A DNA stretch of 37,594 nucleotides, from positions 1 through 37,594 of the IMG/VR virus record IMGVR_UViG_3300016474_000413. One strand, 5' to 3'. The translations under genes were made by a program, and so were the position numbers. The stretch is from a virus. Its lineage: Duplodnaviria > Caudoviricetes. Below, piece after piece: positions 4,408 to 24,957 of this stretch. The notes under the pieces were generated by a model. That model was not told where the DNA came from, made no database searches, and saw nothing but the letters and a program-made list of their open reading frames with translations. Positions within the stretch are counted from its first letter, which is position 1. The number at the start of each line of letters is the position of its first letter.

Positions 4408-4716
4408 TCAGGACTCGTTCGATGCCGGTTGTGCAGCTCGGATCGCGTCGGTGATCGCCTGGCCGACGACGCCGATCGCAAAGCACAGGATCCCTACCAG
4501 CGCGAACGCCAGGAACACGCCCCAGTTGAACACGCCATCGAGGTCAGTGATCGCGAACCAGGTCGTCACCTCCGCGAACCCGCTCTCGTCGTGCACCGCC
4601 TCCAGCGCGAGCCCAGCGAACGCGCCGAGCGCCAGGCACCCGACCAGCAACCACACGCCAGCCGAGAACGCCGCCCGGTTCCGCGCCTGCTCCAACTTGC
4701 TCATCCCGTTGCTCAT
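4408..4716 (-). CDS. Two-TM membrane protein next to attP (102 aa)
   Basis: Two long hydrophobic segments; a -10-like TACGGT lies 7 nt upstream of ATG 4716, suggesting a leaderless transcript. Confidence 0.7.
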   Translation of the reverse strand: MSNGMSKLEQARNRAAFSAGVWLLVGCLALGAFAGLALEAVHDESGFAEVTTWFAITDLDGVFNWGVFLAFALVGILCFAIGVVGQAITDAIRAAQPASNES

Positions 4717-4741
4717 GGCCGCCACCGTAGCGCGCACATCA

Positions 4742-4936
4742 CGCCCTCAATTTCGACCAGGGACAACGCGAAACACCACCCCAGGTGCCCCCACGACCGA
4801 CACGAAACCCCAGCGTGCGAACGGGGCCAGCGCTCTTACAAGGCAATGGTCGGGGGTTCGAGTCCCTCTGCGCCCACTCTCTGACCTGGGGTAATGCGGA
4901 ATCCGCATTCCGCAAGATCACGTGTCGCCCTCAATT
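4742..4936 (+). repeat. Direct repeat CGCCCTCAATT flanking the att core, candidate integrase arm-type sites
   Basis: Exact 11-mers at 4742-4752 and 4926-4936; also an ATGCGGAATCCGCAT inverted repeat at 4894-4908. Confidence 0.6.
4835..4877 (+). other. attP: attP core: 3' half of tRNA-Val(TAC)
   Basis: CTTACAA anticodon loop, GGCAA stem, TGGTC, GGGGG-TTCGAGT-CCCTC T arm, TGCGCCCAC acceptor strand; the 5' tRNA half is absent; just upstream of the integrase. Confidence 0.9.
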
Positions 4937-4953
4937 GTGCATAATCTCGCGAC

Positions 4954-6051
4954 GTGACAGCACGACGAGAGTACGGCTCGGGCAGCCTCGCCGAGGTGCG
5001 GCCCGGCACCTATCGGCTCCGGTGGCACACGGGCATCGACCCGTTCACCGGGAAGCGCACGCAGCGCCAGGAGACGTTCCACGGCACCCGCAAGGCGGCC
5101 ACGAAGCGGCTCGCCGAATGCATCGCTGCGGCCGATGTGTCCTCCTCGATGACGCTCGGCGCGCTGCTCGACATGCACGCAGCGCAGGCGCAGCTCGGGG
5201 CCGACACGAAGGCCCGGTACGACTACGCGCTGCGCCACCTCCCGGCAGGGGTGCGCGCCTGGCGGCTCGACGAGATCTCGTCGCCGATGATCGCCGAGCT
5301 GTACCGCCGCCTCGAGGCCGACGGTGTCGGCGCGCAGACGATCCACAAGGTGCGCACCGCACTCTCGTCGGCGTTCCGGTACGGCATCGAGTGGGGCGTC
5401 GTCGACCGCAACCCGTGCCGCGGCGTGCGGCCGCCGGCCATCGAGCGGCGCACCTACGTCATCCCCACCGTCGACCACCTGCGTGCGATGCTCGACCAGG
5501 CCGACACCAAGCCGGGTGCGTTCCCGATCTGGCTGCGGCTCGCGCTCGGCACCGGTGGCAGGCGCATCGAAGTGCTGCGCCTGCGCTGGGCCGACGTCAC
5601 GTTCGTCGACGGGCTCGCGAAGCTGCGCGTCGTGACGGCCAAGACTCGCGGGCAGCGTGCGCGTACGGTCGTACTCGATGCGAACACCTCGGCGGCGCTG
5701 CTCGCATGGCGCGCGCTTGCAGCTGAACGAGCCATCGCGGTGGGCGCCGAGCTCGAGGGCGACTGCTACGTCGTGAGCGACGATCCGGCCTCACGGGTGC
5801 CGTGGCGACCGGAGCTGGCCACGAAGCGGCTGCAGCGCCTCTCGACGGCCGTCGGCTGTCCGGGTGCACGGCTGCACGACCTGCGCCACGCGCACGCCAC
5901 CATGCTCATCGAGGCAGGCGTCAGCATGCGCACGGTGGCCGACCGGCTCGGGCACACGAGGGTCTCGACGACACAGGACATCTATGGCCACCTGCTGCCC
6001 GGCGCCGACGAGGGCGCCGCGGCCACATTCGGTCAGCTGATGGGCGGGTAG
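4954..6051 (+). CDS. int: Tyrosine integrase (365 aa)
   Basis: Catalytic motifs TGGRRIE, HDLRH, LGH and TQDIYGH; N-terminal GSGSL...YRLRW arm-binding region; adjacent to attP. Confidence 0.95.
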   Translation: MTARREYGSGSLAEVRPGTYRLRWHTGIDPFTGKRTQRQETFHGTRKAATKRLAECIAAADVSSSMTLGALLDMHAAQAQLGADTKARYDYALRHLPAGVRAWRLDEISSPMIAELYRRLEADGVGAQTIHKVRTALSSAFRYGIEWGVVDRNPCRGVRPPAIERRTYVIPTVDHLRAMLDQADTKPGAFPIWLRLALGTGGRRIEVLRLRWADVTFVDGLAKLRVVTAKTRGQRARTVVLDANTSAALLAWRALAAERAIAVGAELEGDCYVVSDDPASRVPWRPELATKRLQRLSTAVGCPGARLHDLRHAHATMLIEAGVSMRTVADRLGHTRVSTTQDIYGHLLPGADEGAAATFGQLMGG

Positions 6052-6100
6052 GACGACTCCGAAACCCGGTTCAGAATCGGTCCCATGACCGTCACTCGTT

Positions 6101-6129
6101 GTCACACCCCGCGCGTAGGTTCTCGTGCA
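6101..6129 (+). promoter_or_regulatory. Putative leaderless promoter for ORF 6129
   Basis: GTCACAC-N8-TAGGTT (6116-6121)-N7-ATG; an operator-like TCGTGCAT overlaps the start codon. Confidence 0.5.
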
Positions 6130-6338
6130 TGGCGATCGGACGAGACACTCAGCAGGACATCGAGGCGCTGGCGGCGGTGCTCAGCGAGATGCGGGAGCTG
6201 CGGACTTCCGTGGGCCGGCTGGCCGACCGCCTCGAGGCGCTGGCGGCGCAGCGAGCTGCTCGACCGCATCGGCAAGTCGTTGTACCTCGCTGCGCAGGTG
6301 GCCGATCTCCTCGGCCATCGCGACGACGAGCTGCGTGA
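6129..6338 (+). CDS. Small coiled-coil protein homologous to the repressor C-terminal coil; candidate antirepressor (69 aa)
   Basis: MAIGRDTQQDIEALAAVLSEMRELRTSVGRLADRLEALAA...; 12/21 aa identical to the repressor coil; overlaps the repressor 3' end convergently. Confidence 0.6.
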   Translation: MAIGRDTQQDIEALAAVLSEMRELRTSVGRLADRLEALAAQRAARPHRQVVVPRCAGGRSPRPSRRRAA

Positions 6339-6627
6339 CGCTCGCCTCGGCCTGGCTGCCCTGCCACGTCTGTGGGACCGGCTCGGCCTCGGCCAGGAAC
6401 GGCGCCGGGTCGTAGTCGACGAGCTCGAAGATCGCTCGTAGGTCGCCGCCGACGGCGATCACCGCCTTGGCCAGCTTCTCGGGCCGAGCGGGGCGGATAC
6501 CCTTCTCGGCCTCGAGCCACCACTGTCGGGAGTTGCCTGATCGCCGCGCCGCCTCGGTCATGTCGAGGGTGCCGCGCGCGGCGCGGAGCGCACGGCCAAC
6601 CTCCTGCCACCTGGTCACTGCTGTCAC
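6181..6627 (-). CDS. Immunity repressor, XRE-family HTH with C-terminal coiled coil (148 aa)
   Basis: GTG 6627 with GGAGG SD; VGRALRAARGTLDMTEAARRSGNSRQWWLEAEKG HTH; divergent from the cro-like gene. Confidence 0.85.
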   Translation of the reverse strand: MTAVTRWQEVGRALRAARGTLDMTEAARRSGNSRQWWLEAEKGIRPARPEKLAKAVIAVGGDLRAIFELVDYDPAPFLAEAEPVPQTWQGSQAEASVTQLVVAMAEEIGHLRSEVQRLADAVEQLAAPPAPRGGRPAGPRKSAAPASR

Positions 6628-6645
6628 GGGGTCATCCTCCGCCCG

Positions 6646-6794
6646 AATTATGCACGGCACAGGGATGCACAGTCGTGCATGTCCGTGCAATTGCATGCAT
6701 GTAATTTGGCGAAGCCCCTGCTAGCGGTACATCTTTGGCGGAGTTGTGCACGATCTATTGACGTCGTGCACAATCGTGCACTACTGTTCGGTTC
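6646..6794. promoter_or_regulatory. Genetic switch: divergent promoters and phased TGCA-core operators
   Basis: Rightward TTGACG (6758)-N18-TACTGT (6782)-N7-GTG; leftward CATAAT; TGCA cores at 6651, 6666, 6676, 6686, 6696, 6747, 6767 and 6777, best copies T(C/T)GTGCAC(A/G)A. Confidence 0.85.
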
Positions 6795-7010
6795 GTGACA
6801 GCAATCGACCCCGAAGCCTTCTCGAAGGCGATGGACCTCACCGGGTACACCCCGCGGCTGCTCGCCAACGAAGTGGGCATCTCGCCCGACTACGTGGTGA
6901 ACATCCGCAACGGCCACCGCCGCCTGAAGCGGAACCCCGTGCTGCGCCGTCGTCTCGCCGATGCGCTGGGCGTGCCTGTCCGTTGGATCGAAGCCAAGGA
7001 GGCAGCATGA
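6795..7010 (+). CDS. cro: Cro-like HTH regulator (71 aa)
   Basis: TPRLLANEVGISPDYVVNIRNGHRR HTH and LADALGV tail; first gene of the rightward operon. Confidence 0.85.
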   Translation: MTAIDPEAFSKAMDLTGYTPRLLANEVGISPDYVVNIRNGHRRLKRNPVLRRRLADALGVPVRWIEAKEAA

Positions 7011-19962: not shown

Positions 19963-19967
19963 GGGCC

Positions 19968-20005
19968 ATTGACGTCGTGCACGGTTGTGCAGTATCGTGC
20001 ACAAC
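19968..20005 (+). promoter_or_regulatory. Second copy of the Cro-type promoter/operator
   Basis: TTGACG (19969)-N18-TATCGT (19993)-N7-GTG; ATTGACGTCGTGCAC is identical to 6757-6771; TGCA cores at 19978, 19988 and 19998. Confidence 0.88.
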
Positions 20006-20407
20006 GTGACAGCAACAGCAATGCCCGACGCCATTGGCGAGGGCCGCTTCACCTTCGACGGTGAAGGGAACATCATCGCAGTGTTCGCCGGGTGGCGCCC
20101 GTTCACCCACTACCGCATCTCGGGCGACGACATGCTCGAGGCGGCCCGCCGGTTCTGGGCGATGCACGCCAAGTGCGCACGGCTGACCGAGCTCGCCGCC
20201 CGCTTCGACGAGGAGGCCGACGACACGGCCCGCATTGCCGTCGAGCGGTGGGAGGAGCTGCGCGAGTGGCGCGACGTGGCCGCCGGGCTGGTCTCCATGA
20301 TCGACGAGCTGTGCGACGAGTGGCCCGAGGACTGCGACCGACCCAACACTCGTGACGCCCTCTGGGCGTACAACGACCTGGTGGCCAAGACGGCGGTGGC
20401 GTCGTGA
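20006..20407 (+). CDS. Hypothetical helical protein (133 aa), probably leaderless
   Basis: GTG 7 nt after the -10 element; typical codon usage. Confidence 0.75.
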   Translation: MTATAMPDAIGEGRFTFDGEGNIIAVFAGWRPFTHYRISGDDMLEAARRFWAMHAKCARLTELAARFDEEADDTARIAVERWEELREWRDVAAGLVSMIDELCDEWPEDCDRPNTRDALWAYNDLVAKTAVAS

Positions 20408-20529
20408 ACGCCCCGATCGACCGCACCCACGAGGAGTCGGTGCAGGCCGTGGCGGCGATCCGTCGCTGGGTGCTCACCGCCCGCGCTCGTGTCGCCCGCT
20501 GGGAACCGCGCCCGGCGCCGCAGCGATGA
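20404..20529 (+). CDS. Small hypothetical protein (41 aa)
   Basis: VNAPIDRTHEESVQAVAAIRRW...; 4-nt overlaps at both ends. Confidence 0.55.
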   Translation: MNAPIDRTHEESVQAVAAIRRWVLTARARVARWEPRPAPQR

Positions 20530-20761: not shown

Positions 20762-20877
20762 GCGCACTGCGTGACCTCTCCGACGAGGTGGTGCACCTCG
20801 CGCTCGCCGGTGGGCTCATCGTGCTCGCCGTCGCGTTCTTCCTGCACGTCGCGTTCCACGAACGAGGCCCCCGATGA
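20758..20877 (+). CDS. Single-TM peptide (39 aa)
   Basis: VVHLALAGGLIVLAVAFFLHVAF; ATGA overlaps. Confidence 0.55.
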   Translation: MSALRDLSDEVVHLALAGGLIVLAVAFFLHVAFHERGPR

Positions 20878-21959
20878 GCGCCCCGCTCATCAAGGTGTAC
20901 CCGGCCGACCTCGGCGGCTGCGGGCACTACCGAACGATCTGGCCCGGCGACGAGCTCGAGCGTCAGGGTGCATCGGTACAGGTGGTCATGCCCACCGCTC
21001 CCGACGCCGAGCAGATCCAGGCGTTGTGGCAGGGTGCCGACACCGACGACCGCCGGCTGATCGACGTCGCCCACCCCGAGGCCGACGTCGTCGTACTGCA
21101 GCGCCCGCTCACCGACACGCTCGCCGGGGCCGTCCCGATCCTGCAGGCCAAGGGCGTGCGGGTGGTGGTCGAGATCGACGACGACTTCGAGGCCATCTCG
21201 CCGCGCAACGTGTCGTGGGCGAGTGTCGACCCCGCCAAGCACCCGCGGCGCAACCGCGACCACCTGCGCCGAGCGTGCGAGGCCGCCGACATGGTCGTGT
21301 GCTCGACGCCTGCCCTGGCGGCGCGCTACGGCAAGCACGGCCGTGTGCGCATCGTGCGCAACCGCGTGCCGCGCTGGTACCTGGCGGTCGAGCGCGACGA
21401 GCACGAGGGCGTGTTCGTCGGCTGGTCGGGCTCGCTCGAGACGCACCCCGATGACCTGCAGGTGACCGGTGGGGGAGTGGCCCGTGCCGTGACGATGACC
21501 GGCGCCACGTTCGCCGTGATCGGCACCGGCCGCGGCGTGCAGCGTGCGCTCGGCCTGTCGTCGCCGCCACCGGCGTGCGGGTGGGTGCCGCTGGGCAAGT
21601 ACCCGTACGCCCTGGCGCAGCTCGACGTCGGCATCGTGCCGCTCGAACTGACCCCGTTCAACCAGGCCAAGAGCGCGCTGAAGATGATGGAGATGGCCGC
21701 GCTCGGCGTCGTGCCGGTCGTGTCGCCCACCGACGAGAACGCCCGCATGACCAAGCTCGGCGTCGGGATGACAGCCGGCAACCCGCGGGTGTGGTCGGGC
21801 CTCATCAAGGGCCTGGTGAACGACCCCGACCTGCGCGCCGGTTTCGCCGCCCGCAGCCGGGAGGCGATGCGGGCGCACACCATCGAAGGTCACGCCGAGG
21901 AGTGGTTCGACGCCTGGGCCTCGGCAGTCAACACCCGAGCGAAAGGCTCCTCATCGTGA
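20874..21959 (+). CDS. Glycosyltransferase, GT-B fold (361 aa)
   Basis: GCGHYR, VVVEIDDDF, VCSTPALA, VGWSGS..H..DL, DVGIVPL...FNQAKSALKMME.AALG.P.V.SP motifs. Confidence 0.9.
   Translation: MSAPLIKVYPADLGGCGHYRTIWPGDELERQGASVQVVMPTAPDAEQIQALWQGADTDDRRLIDVAHPEADVVVLQRPLTDTLAGAVPILQAKGVRVVVEIDDDFEAISPRNVSWASVDPAKHPRRNRDHLRRACEAADMVVCSTPALAARYGKHGRVRIVRNRVPRWYLAVERDEHEGVFVGWSGSLETHPDDLQVTGGGVARAVTMTGATFAVIGTGRGVQRALGLSSPPPACGWVPLGKYPYALAQLDVGIVPLELTPFNQAKSALKMMEMAALGVVPVVSPTDENARMTKLGVGMTAGNPRVWSGLIKGLVNDPDLRAGFAARSREAMRAHTIEGHAEEWFDAWASAVNTRAKGSSS
21928..21948 (+). promoter_or_regulatory. Late-promoter motif before the endonuclease VII gene and downstream glycan genes
   Basis: TCAACAC-N8-AAGGCT-N7-GTG. 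Confidence 0.5.
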
Positions 21960-22438
21960 CAGCAGCCAAGCCGTGCACTCGGTGTCGTCAGGTGCGACCC
22001 CTCGCAGACTTCAGCCTCGACCGGAGGCGGAAGGACGGACGCAATCGTTACTGCCGCGACTGCGTGAACGCCGAACACCGCACCCCTGAGTTTCGTGCTC
22101 GGCAGCGCGCACGCCATGCCGCGAAGCTGGCGGCCGACCCGGACTATCGGCGACGTCGAGATCTCCGGGTTCGATACGGCATCACGCTGGAGACCTATCA
22201 GGCGATGCTCGCAGCGCAGGGTGGCGGGTGTGCGATCTGCGGTGCGACCGACGATGGTCGAGGCAAGGCACTCCACGTCGACCACGACCACGCCTGCTGT
22301 TCGGGTCGAACCAGCTGCGGCGCATGCGTTCGTGCGCTGCTCTGCTCGCCATGCAACACCGCCGTCGGCTGGTTCGAGGCCCGCGGCGTCGACTGGTGGC
22401 GATCCGTCGCTGCGTTCACCGAAGGAGTGAGGACATGA
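21956..22438 (+). CDS. Endonuclease VII-like (His-Me finger) nuclease (160 aa)
   Basis: CTRC/CRDC; RYGITLETY..M...QGG.CAIC; LHVDHDH; VRALLCSPCN. Confidence 0.9.
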   Translation: MTAAKPCTRCRQVRPLADFSLDRRRKDGRNRYCRDCVNAEHRTPEFRARQRARHAAKLAADPDYRRRRDLRVRYGITLETYQAMLAAQGGGCAICGATDDGRGKALHVDHDHACCSGRTSCGACVRALLCSPCNTAVGWFEARGVDWWRSVAAFTEGVRT

Positions 22439-23145
22439 GGAAGATCGTGGTCGGCACGACGTTGCCGACGATGGCGATGGGGGACGTCGATGCGTGGTCG
22501 TCCTGGTTGAAGCACGCTGAGCGGCAACGCCTGATGGCCGCCGAGCTCGGCTACCAGCTGCGTCATTTCGCGGCGATCCAGACCGATGCCCGCGGCATGG
22601 AGCCGTTTTGGCCGCTGCTGGACCGTCTAGCCGAGCTCGGCGGCGAGCACTGGACCTACACGCTCGACGACGGCCGAACGTCGATCACCATGACTGGACG
22701 CTGGCGGCACATCACGTTCGGTCAGAACGTCGTCACCGAGTTCTGCCAGAGCGACCCCGACGTCGAGTGGCTGCTCTTCCTGGCCGCCGACTGCGCCGCC
22801 CCGAGCGACATCGTGCCGCGGATGCTGGAGATGAACCACCCGCTCGTCGCCCCGTACATCTCGACCTATGGCCTGCGTGGCCCGGCCGTGGCCGGCTACG
22901 ACTTCCCGGTCGAGGAGTGCATGGCGTCGGCGGCGGCGATGTTCATCCACCGCTCGGTGTTCCGCTCGATCCGGTGGCGCTGGGACCTCGACACCGGCAT
23001 GAGCGACGACCCGTGCTACCACCACGACGCACGCACGCTGCTCGGCATCGAGACGCGCGTGCGCATGGACGTGCTCGCCCGGCACTACCCCGAGGCCGTG
23101 GGCGACTACGAGAGCCGCGGCTACGACACGGCGGTCGTGCGATGA
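22435..23145 (+). CDS. Glycosyltransferase, GT-A/GT2-like (236 aa)
   Basis: GQN..., WLLFLAADC (degenerate DxD), AMFIHRSVF, SDDPCY, late His motif. Confidence 0.65.
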   Translation: MRKIVVGTTLPTMAMGDVDAWSSWLKHAERQRLMAAELGYQLRHFAAIQTDARGMEPFWPLLDRLAELGGEHWTYTLDDGRTSITMTGRWRHITFGQNVVTEFCQSDPDVEWLLFLAADCAAPSDIVPRMLEMNHPLVAPYISTYGLRGPAVAGYDFPVEECMASAAAMFIHRSVFRSIRWRWDLDTGMSDDPCYHHDARTLLGIETRVRMDVLARHYPEAVGDYESRGYDTAVVR

Positions 23146-23492
23146 GCTGCGAGATCGTCTACGTCGTGGCACACCCGTACGCCGCCGATGCAATCGAGGG
23201 CGTGTTCTTCGTGTCGCGACAGTTAGCCGACGACGCTGCGGCCGAGGTGAACGGAACCGTCATCACGCTCACGCGACACCGGTTCGACCGCGACGAGCAG
23301 CTCGTCGAGTCACTTCCTGAGCTCAAGCCACTTCCCGAGCTCGAGCCGTTCGGCGAGCTCGTGGCCGTGGACGAGCCGCGAGTCACCTTGCACGTCGACG
23401 CCGCCGAGGTGTTGCAGCAGTGCGCCAGTCGCGACAACGCCGTCGACTTCATCGGGAAGGTGCTCGGCCTGGCCAAGAGGAGCGAACCGTGA
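23142..23492 (+). CDS. Hypothetical protein (116 aa)
   Basis: ATGA/GTGA-coupled; contains an LPELKPLPELEP duplication. Confidence 0.6.
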   Translation: MSCEIVYVVAHPYAADAIEGVFFVSRQLADDAAAEVNGTVITLTRHRFDRDEQLVESLPELKPLPELEPFGELVAVDEPRVTLHVDAAEVLQQCASRDNAVDFIGKVLGLAKRSEP

Positions 23493-24055
23493 CCGTCAAG
23501 CGTCTGCGCCCCATGCCCACGGCCGAGGAGATGGCCGCGATGTACCCCGCGCCGCACGACCACCGCATCTATGGCCGCGGGCACCACGAGCGCGTCGAGG
23601 CCACCGTGGCGCTCGCCGTGCAGCAGATCGCCGACGCCGAGCGGCAGATCGTGGCCGACCTGTCGTGTGGCAACGGCGACATCGCCCGCCGCATCGCCAC
23701 CTCGCCCGCCGTGCACCTGGGCGACTTCGCCGCCGGCTGGGAGTACCACGGCCCGCTCGAGGAGACGCTCGACCTGATCCCGCTCGTCGACGTGTACGTG
23801 TGCAGCGAGACGATCGAGCACCTCGACGACCCGTTCGACGTGCTGCTCAAGATCCGCCACCAGGCCGAGCGCCTCGTGTTGTCCACCCCGATCGGATGCT
23901 GGGATGACGCCAACGGCGAGCACCTCTGGGCGTGGGACCGAGAGGGCGTCGAGCAGCTGCTCGACTCGGCCGGCTGGTCGCCGTGGGCGTTCACGAACGT
24001 CGACTCGACGGCCTACGGCGAGCCCTACAACTACGGCATCTGGGTGGCAGTGTGA
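23489..24055 (+). CDS. Class I SAM-dependent methyltransferase (188 aa)
   Basis: VADLSCGNG motif I, CSETIEHLDDP, LVLSTP; no DNA-MTase NPPY/DPPY/PC motif. Confidence 0.88.
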   Translation: MTVKRLRPMPTAEEMAAMYPAPHDHRIYGRGHHERVEATVALAVQQIADAERQIVADLSCGNGDIARRIATSPAVHLGDFAAGWEYHGPLEETLDLIPLVDVYVCSETIEHLDDPFDVLLKIRHQAERLVLSTPIGCWDDANGEHLWAWDREGVEQLLDSAGWSPWAFTNVDSTAYGEPYNYGIWVAV

Positions 24056-24957
24056 AGACGGCACTCGTCACCGGGCACCAGGGGTTCGTCGGTCGTCACA
24101 TGGTGCGCGCGCTGGAGACCGACGGCTACACCGTCACCGGCCTGGACATCCTCGACCGGCCGAACCCGCACGACTGCCGCGACTACTTCCGCACGTTCGA
24201 CCATCGGTTCGACCTGGTCGTGCACTGCGCCGCCGTCGTGGGTGGCCGCACGCTGATCGACGGCGAGCCACTGCGCCTCGCGGCCGAGGACCTGTCGATC
24301 GACGCCGAGATGTTCCGCTGGGCGCTGCGCACCCGGCCAGGCCGCATCGTCTACTTCTCGTCGAGCGCGGCGTACCCGGTCGAGCTGCAGCAACCCGGCC
24401 TGCGCCACCCGCTGCGAGAGACCGACATCGGTGGGTGGCACATCGGCATGCCCGATGCGACGTACGGGTGGGTGAAGCTGACCGGCGAGCGCCTGGCCGA
24501 GGAGGCCAACGCCGAGGGCATCCGCACCCACGTGTTCCGCCCGTTCAGCGGCTACGGCGCCGACCAGGCGCTCGACTACCCGTTCCCGGCGATCGTGCAG
24601 CGTGCCGTCGAGCACAGTGCCGGGCCGTTCCGTGTCTGGGGCAGCGCCAACTCGACGCGCGACTGGGTGCACATCGACGACGTGGTGGGCTGCGTCATGG
24701 CGCACATCGACGCCGACGTGGTCGGTCCGGTGAACATCTGCACCGGCGTGGCGACCACGTTCCGCGACCTGGCTCGTCGGGCGCTGGCACGGGCTGGTCG
24801 GCACGACGTGGAGATCGTCGGCGACACCGCTAAGCCGATGGGCGTGATGCACCGCGTCGGCCACCCCGGTCAGATGCTCGAGGTGTACCAGCCCCGCATC
24901 GACATCGCCGACGGCATCGATCGCGCCGTGGCGGCACTGATGGGGGGGGCGGCATGA
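24052..24957 (+). CDS. NAD-dependent nucleotide-sugar epimerase/dehydratase, extended SDR (301 aa)
   Basis: LVTGHQGFVG, HCAA, FSSSAAY, YGWVK (YxxxK), RPFSGYG, RDWVHIDD. Confidence 0.93.
   Translation: MKTALVTGHQGFVGRHMVRALETDGYTVTGLDILDRPNPHDCRDYFRTFDHRFDLVVHCAAVVGGRTLIDGEPLRLAAEDLSIDAEMFRWALRTRPGRIVYFSSSAAYPVELQQPGLRHPLRETDIGGWHIGMPDATYGWVKLTGERLAEEANAEGIRTHVFRPFSGYGADQALDYPFPAIVQRAVEHSAGPFRVWGSANSTRDWVHIDDVVGCVMAHIDADVVGPVNICTGVATTFRDLARRALARAGRHDVEIVGDTAKPMGVMHRVGHPGQMLEVYQPRIDIADGIDRAVAALMGGAA

Follow-up and report, generated by a model that had tools for sequence, protein, structure and literature searches.

The closest described counterparts of the locus analysed here come from Bacillus. 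For the extended arbitrium systems AimX/AimC/AimL of the Bacillus phages phi106, W23, Wbeta and BMBtp14, the available text of the preprint describes AimX as a helical protein of 29-80 aa that binds the C-terminal domain of AimC and prevents its oligomerisation, and reports the AimX antisense RNA to be unimportant (bioRxiv 10.1101/2025.11.23.689978). In the same text, SinI of Bacillus subtilis, which has no HTH, is presented as a mimic of the oligomerisation domain of the XRE repressor SinR, and LexA-controlled phage antirepressors are presented as separate antirepressors under the control of a host damage regulator (bioRxiv 10.1101/2025.11.23.689978). The consulted sections of the mycobacterial literature give a PafBC motif, tGTCgg(N10)tA(N3)T, made of a -26 element and a -10 in a 22-nt layout (PMC8635444; RecA-NDp form in PMC5656591), call its GTC triplet strictly conserved (PMC8635444), and describe this motif class as switched on by PafBC in mycobacteria (PMC8635444, PMC5656591, PMC8223512, PMC6789036).

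We analysed a 37.6-kb virus record bounded by direct terminal repeats (37,594 nt in all, here called the window). It carries terminase, portal, capsid, tail, primase, holin and tyrosine integrase genes and a repressor/cro/excisionase block, and is a temperate phage of Acidimicrobiia. Convergent with its repressor gene lies a small ORF that, judged from sequence and structure prediction, probably encodes a decoy antirepressor that is induced by DNA damage and acts in the manner of Bacillus AimX or SinI. The elements of the locus are as follows.

4835..4877, plus strand: attP core, the 3' part of a tRNA-Val(TAC) of Acidimicrobiia
4954..6051, plus strand: tyrosine integrase, ending 48 nt 5' of the promoter
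6100..6121, plus strand: recA-type (RecA-NDp/PafBC-type) promoter, TGTCAC, 10 nt, TAGGTT, 7 nt from the ATG
6129..6338, plus strand: small ORF, candidate antirepressor, 69 aa, ending RRRAA, modelled with AF2 and with counterparts at 5 loci
6186..6248, plus strand: mirror segment of the small ORF, residues 20-40, EMRELRTSVGRLADRLEALAA
6247..6309, minus strand: mirror segment of the repressor, residues 107-127, the end of its single long C-terminal helix, EIGHLRSEVQRLADAVEQLAA
6181..6627, minus strand: XRE-type phage repressor, 148 aa, start at 6627, overlapping the small ORF by 158 nt
6744..6783, no strand: three operator-like palindromes, T[CT]GTGCAC[AG]A, in the repressor-cro interval, kept in relatives L001, L002 and L025
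6795..7010, plus strand: cro-like HTH gene, divergent from the repressor
19965-20410, plus strand: 133-aa ORF behind a copy of the cro promoter, start GTG ACA GCA at 20006, no PHROG match

Acidimicrobiia were taken as the host because the attP core matches tRNA-Val there: a 43-base stretch 5' of the integrase has an exact match in 17 genomes, whose titles name Acidimicrobiia taxa in 8 cases and higher actinobacterial ranks in the rest, and the match was a tRNA-Val in 4/4 loci checked. At one locus (L022), an integrase piece with 77% identity adjoins the attP match; a scan with the integrase gave 4 distant matches.

The AF2 model of the repressor comprises an HTH domain (residues 3-81), one long helix (92-126) and a disordered P/A/R/G tail (127-148). 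The HTH is its only domain, with a Pfam match to HTH_31 below the cut-off (E 0.0018), and the nearest folds of the model are XRE regulators (best E 0.004), with the SinI/SinR structure PDB 1b0n at rank 50 (E 0.15) among the fold matches. The small ORF is predicted to form a single helix (residues 2-44, pLDDT 97-98 across residues 11-40) followed by a disordered tail. On the DNA, the tail of either protein lies antisense to the helix of its counterpart, and the two helices meet at the axis.

The first-pass annotation, made from the sequence of the locus, had described the small ORF as a mirror image of the repressor helix, and all of its numbers were reproduced: EMRELRTSVGRLADRLEALAA and EIGHLRSEVQRLADAVEQLAA share 12/21 residues and 37/63 bases, lie symmetrically about 6247.5, and use different codons at 7/12 of the residues common to both. 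Base identity by codon position is 14, 16 and 7 of 21 at positions 1, 2 and 3, respectively. The mirror region is not a hairpin, because its RNA folds no better than shuffled sequences (z -1.20 and -0.68). A hairpin or assembly artefact was also rejected on the evidence of a close variant, X3, which spans 5902-6900 in one contig with 81 differences. Among the 820,193 mirror pairings in the window, this one outscores every other; the four pairings that reach 11/21 comprise three off-frame, low-complexity pairings and one shifted copy of the same mirror. When the repressor helix was compared with 45,324 21-mers from 147 host-like proteins, a set that contains few true coiled coils, the maximum was 8/21, which holds for the three repressor helices tested, and the maximum among 1,259 amphipathic segments was 6/21. 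By this measure the mirror is above chance. The identities appear, as far as a heptad assignment from sequence allows, to be spread over core, flank and outer positions without distinction, and common descent, though unproven, would therefore fit better than convergence.

As had been noted earlier, the small ORF has no HTH and ends in RAA; it has no Pfam or PHROG match. Protein searches with the peptide gave no match, and the ORF is absent from the called proteins of the protein collection. Against PDB sequences, the peptide profile matched a designed helical bundle best (E 0.004), which is a generic heptad match, and the profile-profile match between peptide and repressor is weak (probability 36%). 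The first 35 codons have a gene-like GC content of 0.77/0.46/0.89 by codon position; antisense frames of at least 55 codons arise by chance in 159/1,217 cases. Inside the ORF, a 17-nt direct repeat occurs as two exact copies at a distance of 72 nt (6160-6176 and 6232-6248, encoding EALAA twice); in L001 the repeat is inexact.

The promoter connects the small ORF to the host damage response. An earlier claim of a bare -10 (TAGGTT, 6116-6121, 7 nt from the ATG) was right as to its presence and incomplete as to its nature: the hexamer is half of a host recA-type (RecA-NDp/PafBC) promoter. The 22 bases at 6100-6121 match a site 5' of recA in 5/5 host genomes and fit the published PafBC layout (TGTCAC-N10-TAGGTT), and with the -10 only 7 nt from the ATG, the transcript is likely leaderless. 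A matrix built from the 5 host recA promoters alone placed the window site at rank 1 of 75,146 positions. The matching site also ranked first in the relatives L001, L025, L028 and L054, the last of these ranks being circular because that locus was found by the motif; in L002, the rank was 25 and the motif is absent. At 5 loci the start codon stands 6-8 nt 3' of the -10. A site scoring 5 or more together with a leaderless overlapping ORF occurred in 0/33 distinct control XRE loci (35 rows, with L312 left out).

The exact motif has 15 matches in 3 host genomes, mostly 6-8 nt from a start, versus 0 for the reversed control. The genes behind them are recA (two), RadA-like (two), ComM-like (two), DUF222-like (six), an exonuclease, a small ORF and L054; the names RadA and ComM are a reading of Pfam domains, and 1/6 of the DUF222-like genes passed Pfam. 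The GTC triplet is present in the window and missing from L001, L025, L028 and, among the host recA sites, one (L033). Tandem WYL genes with HTH_PafC were found in 5/5 candidate hosts, where they do not adjoin Pup ligase genes. By analogy with mycobacteria, we infer that PafBC would activate this motif in Acidimicrobiia as well. A clear host LexA box, CGAAC-N4-GTTCG, stands at lexA and in 4/5 recA regions, and LexA-box-like sequences with 9/10 matches lie over the -10 in L025, L054 and the close variant X9. A LexA box alone was rejected as the trigger in the window, where the match is 7/10 and sites with two mismatches are common.

The motif was also seen elsewhere. In L039 and L042, the gene divergent from host lexA also carries a TGTCACACCCC element. 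In L067, L068, L073, L090, L096, L132 and others, in actinobacterial-looking phages, a recA-type promoter stands in leaderless arrangement before proteins of 265-309 aa that by eye resemble PD-(D/E)XK exonucleases, as if borrowing the host damage response. Helical ORFs of 65-68 aa lie directly behind a recA-type promoter in L290 (minus strand), L085 and L059, with no convergent repressor in the DNA examined. Three promoter-motif scans of viral contigs yielded 125 loci (21/64 parts), 121 loci (58/64) and 0 loci, and no further mirror system was found among these loci, about a third of which had short flanks only.

A search of relatives, as suggested earlier, showed that the arrangement itself recurs. 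A convergent, overlapping, helix-mirroring small ORF is present at 6/6 related repressor loci: the window, L001 and L002 (DNA reached through the repressor family), L025 and L028 (through genome searches) and L054 (through the promoter motif). An integrase is present at both L002 and L028, and cro- and xis-like ORFs at L025; L054 is a contig end. All six repressors are of the HTH type with a C-terminal helix and a P/A/R/G tail, L001 being 83% and L002 41% identical. The six small ORFs encode 56-71 aa in one frame relation and overlap the repressor by 152-182 nt, according to the starts used; the close variants X3 (whole) and X9 (from 6128) have no indels in the small ORF. The best 21-residue identity of each peptide to its own repressor is 12 in the window, 6 in L001, 8 in L002, 7 in L025, 12 in L028 and 10 in L054, which places the 12/21 of the window at the top of a range of 6-12. 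The own repressor is the best-scoring one for 3/6 peptides. In L028 a perfect 15-bp inverted repeat lies at the axis, and the mirror identity there is therefore partly DNA symmetry.

Terminal AA is a protease signal. The peptide ends in AA in the window and L001, L002 and L025, and in VA in L028 and GH in L054, so the AA end is not required. By chance, AA ends occur in 10/1,217 segments, and two of the three groups of loci with this end share the underlying repressor motif. The repressor family is small: one protein search gave 4 matches and another 20, and among 401 genomes of the class 6 matched, 2 with this repressor type and 4 with other XRE types. Family-level repeat searches with the repressor gave one unrelated match, and the L054 repressor gave 0/201. 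No repressor relatives were found in the viral-contig scans, the genome-contig scan or the phage records, and tblastn of the repressor against 50,697 phage records gave no match at E 1.

We then compared selection on the two strands. Between the window and L001, a single pair with small counts, pN/pS was 0.04/0.20 for the HTH, 0.22/0.15 for the repressor helix, 0.05/0.28 for the repressor tail, 0.11/0.24 for the non-overlapping peptide codons 2-17 (7 changes) and 0.19/0.0 for the peptide helix. Seven of the nine differences in the overlap of repressor tail and peptide helix are synonymous in the repressor but alter a residue of the peptide, indicating that the purifying signal belongs to the repressor tail, which is conserved in 19/21 residues, and not to the peptide. 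In the non-overlapping part of the small ORF, 4/5 variant changes alter residues. The dN/dS check proposed in the first-pass annotation thus gave no purifying signal on the peptide helix in this pair. The fast change of both helices could reflect relaxed selection or diversifying specificity. The hydrophobic heptad residues L18, M21, L24, V28, L31 and L35 of the peptide are kept (6/7), and L38 is not. Codons ending in A make up 6/21 in the repressor tail versus 20/365 in the integrase, which would be expected were hydrophobic residues needed on the other strand; this codon bias suggests that the other strand shapes the repressor-tail codons.

No other route to induction was found in the phage. 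In agreement with the earlier statement that the repressor has no LexA-like protease domain, S24 (PF00717) and IrrE/ImmA (PF06114) had 0 matches in the phage record, and the AF2 repressor model contains no such domain; the ANT and Bro-N families likewise had no match in the record with terminal repeats. The damage-type promoter of the small ORF is therefore the only induction link found. An operator on the start codon of the small ORF, proposed earlier, was rejected: the sequence there, TCGTGCAT, has 2 mismatches to the phage operator-like palindrome, 89 such sites occur in the window, and it is lost in L001.

Further features of the record were observed. An operator-like palindrome with 1 mismatch lies over the integrase -10 (4935-4944) and is absent from L001. 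The repressor (6627), cro (6795), the integrase (4954) and the ORF at 20006 share the start GTG ACA GCA. Within the head gene block there is a second copy of the cro promoter, with TTGACG and two or three operator-like palindromes, and from these sequence features the 133-aa ORF at 20006 is likely a further repressor-controlled gene. Glycosyltransferase-like and nucleotide-sugar epimerase-like genes (20874-24957) are also situated amid the head genes. In the neighbourhood of the repressor or attP there are small membrane/lipoprotein-like genes that belong to no known family (4408-4737, minus strand; L002 561-857; L025 49-321; L028 1918-2136), in three relatives directly 3' of the repressor across the small-ORF promoter; they are possible superinfection-exclusion candidates. 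PADLOC and Rfam gave no matches.

What the DNA itself shows is a promoter motif placed 7 nt from the ATG, the mirror, and a layout conserved among the loci, and the following course of events can be proposed. DNA damage would activate PafBC, which would drive a leaderless small-ORF transcript; in some relatives a LexA box is added to the PafBC-type input. The repressor presumably oligomerises through helix 92-126 and would be unable to cleave itself. The HTH-less peptide would replace a repressor partner on the C-terminal helix, so that oligomers break up and the operators at 6744-6783 become unoccupied, which may allow expression of cro, xis and the replication genes. The C-terminal AA would keep the peptide short-lived, so that transient leakage would not cause induction, and convergent transcription is a possible extra effect, likely secondary, as for AimX. 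The small ORF thus likely encodes a decoy peptide that would wake the phage after DNA damage, since it combines a recA-type promoter with a helix copying the predicted pairing helix of the repressor.

Other explanations of the locus have to be weighed against a damage-induced decoy. The promoter could itself be the functional part, acting through antisense RNA, transcriptional collision or read-through into cro, with the peptide mattering little. It is the best-supported element, it points across the whole repressor gene to cro, the one obstacle being a weak terminator-like site of 5 pairs (6684-6697), and the peptide helix has no purifying signal in the closest pair. This explanation nevertheless leaves unaccounted for the placing, at 5 loci, of a start codon 6-8 nt 3' of the -10, a codon pattern like that of genes, the terminal AA and a resemblance to the repressor helix that greatly exceeds the null, and in the available text on AimX, recoding and start-to-stop tests revealed little RNA effect (bioRxiv 10.1101/2025.11.23.689978); we regard it as unlikely, though the strongest of the competitors.

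Less probable again is a peptide that binds the repressor helix and merely tunes it, by altering operator preference, capping higher oligomers or using its AA end to hand the repressor over to a protease. All the conservation evidence for a decoy applies to it equally, and AA ends are found in more than one overlap context (L002 versus the window); however, L028 ends in VA and L054 in GH, and the known analogues, as far as the available text describes them, block oligomers (bioRxiv 10.1101/2025.11.23.689978). At the bottom of the scale, and quite improbable, we place a mirror that arose as a by-product, either from a DNA palindrome or ancient inverted repeat or as the antisense image of a P/A/R/G repressor tail under selection, and that yields no functional peptide. 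The inverted repeat of L028, the conserved repressor tail and the lack of any called protein matching the ORF speak for such a by-product; yet the window identity resides at codon positions 1-2 and not 3, no stable hairpin exists in the window, the tail codons are A-ending far above the integrase proportion, and a correctly spaced recA-type promoter is not expected of a by-product.

Beyond the damage-induced decoy itself, we tentatively put forward a wider picture, which is possible but on balance doubtful: a one-locus switch in Acidimicrobiia prophages, in which repressor and antirepressor are encoded on opposite strands in a fixed frame, the antirepressor being an inverted image of the repressor helix, sometimes re-copied, fired by host PafBC rather than RecA/LexA, with each repressor variant having its own matching off-switch. 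The perfect palindrome of L028 suggests such an inverted-image origin or re-copying. A damage-induced decoy would give actinobacterial prophages with short, non-cleavable repressors a concrete route for sensing DNA damage, from PafBC to decoy peptide; it would extend the AimX design beyond arbitrium and Bacillus, provide a compact case of two-strand coding, and define the recA-type promoter of Acidimicrobiia. No account of PafBC-driven prophage induction or of a mirror-coded antirepressor was found in the literature searched, which mostly excludes subscription papers.

Compared with the known systems, the locus stands nearest to AimX/AimC as the available text presents them. Both have a small helical ORF convergent with the 3' end of a short HTH repressor (AimX sometimes overlapping it), a divergent cro-like gene on the far side of the repressor, a repressor not itself responsive to RecA, and a DNA-damage input (a LexA site in phi106). 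Here, however, the upstream gene is an integrase and aimR/aimP are absent, so the locus is not a member of the extended arbitrium systems. It also differs in its actinobacterial host, in the activator-type (PafBC) promoter as apparent trigger, in an overlap of 152-182 nt versus 30 bp in phi106, and in an oligomer part consisting of one long helix. The main text of the preprint contains no statement that we could find of AimX copying AimC sequence (bioRxiv 10.1101/2025.11.23.689978).

Bacillus SinI had been offered earlier as the precedent for a decoy. A close published precedent does exist; on the text available, it is AimX/AimC, a closer match than SinI. Like SinI, the small ORF encodes a small HTH-less helical protein similar to the C-terminal part of an XRE repressor (6-12/21 at 6 loci), whereas SinI/SinR is a chromosomal biofilm switch and this is a phage locus. 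The sinI and sinR genes are co-directional and non-overlapping, and the system has a helical-hook domain. The SinI family Pfam match was 0/6 peptides at E 1, no SinI chain was among the PDB sequence matches, and by sequence the small ORF is no member of the SinI family.

In its promoter, the locus resembles the mycobacterial RecA-NDp/PafBC promoters, as excerpted, in the 22-nt layout tGTC..-N10-tA-N3-T that is also found at host recA; it differs in that the Acidimicrobiia version reads TGT[CAG]ACACCC and not TGTCgg, and in that the window copy stands on a phage gene. LexA-controlled antirepressors reportedly occur in Gifsy phages and in small-ORF modules, and we know of none that is a mirror copy of the repressor tail. 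As far as they are described, they share with the small ORF a separate antirepressor for a non-cleavable repressor under a host damage regulator, but unlike it they are switched on by relief of LexA repression. As a mechanism, the decoy is already known; this locus differs in its host class, its PafBC-type trigger, an overlap that is long and fixed in frame, and the mirroring of sequence.
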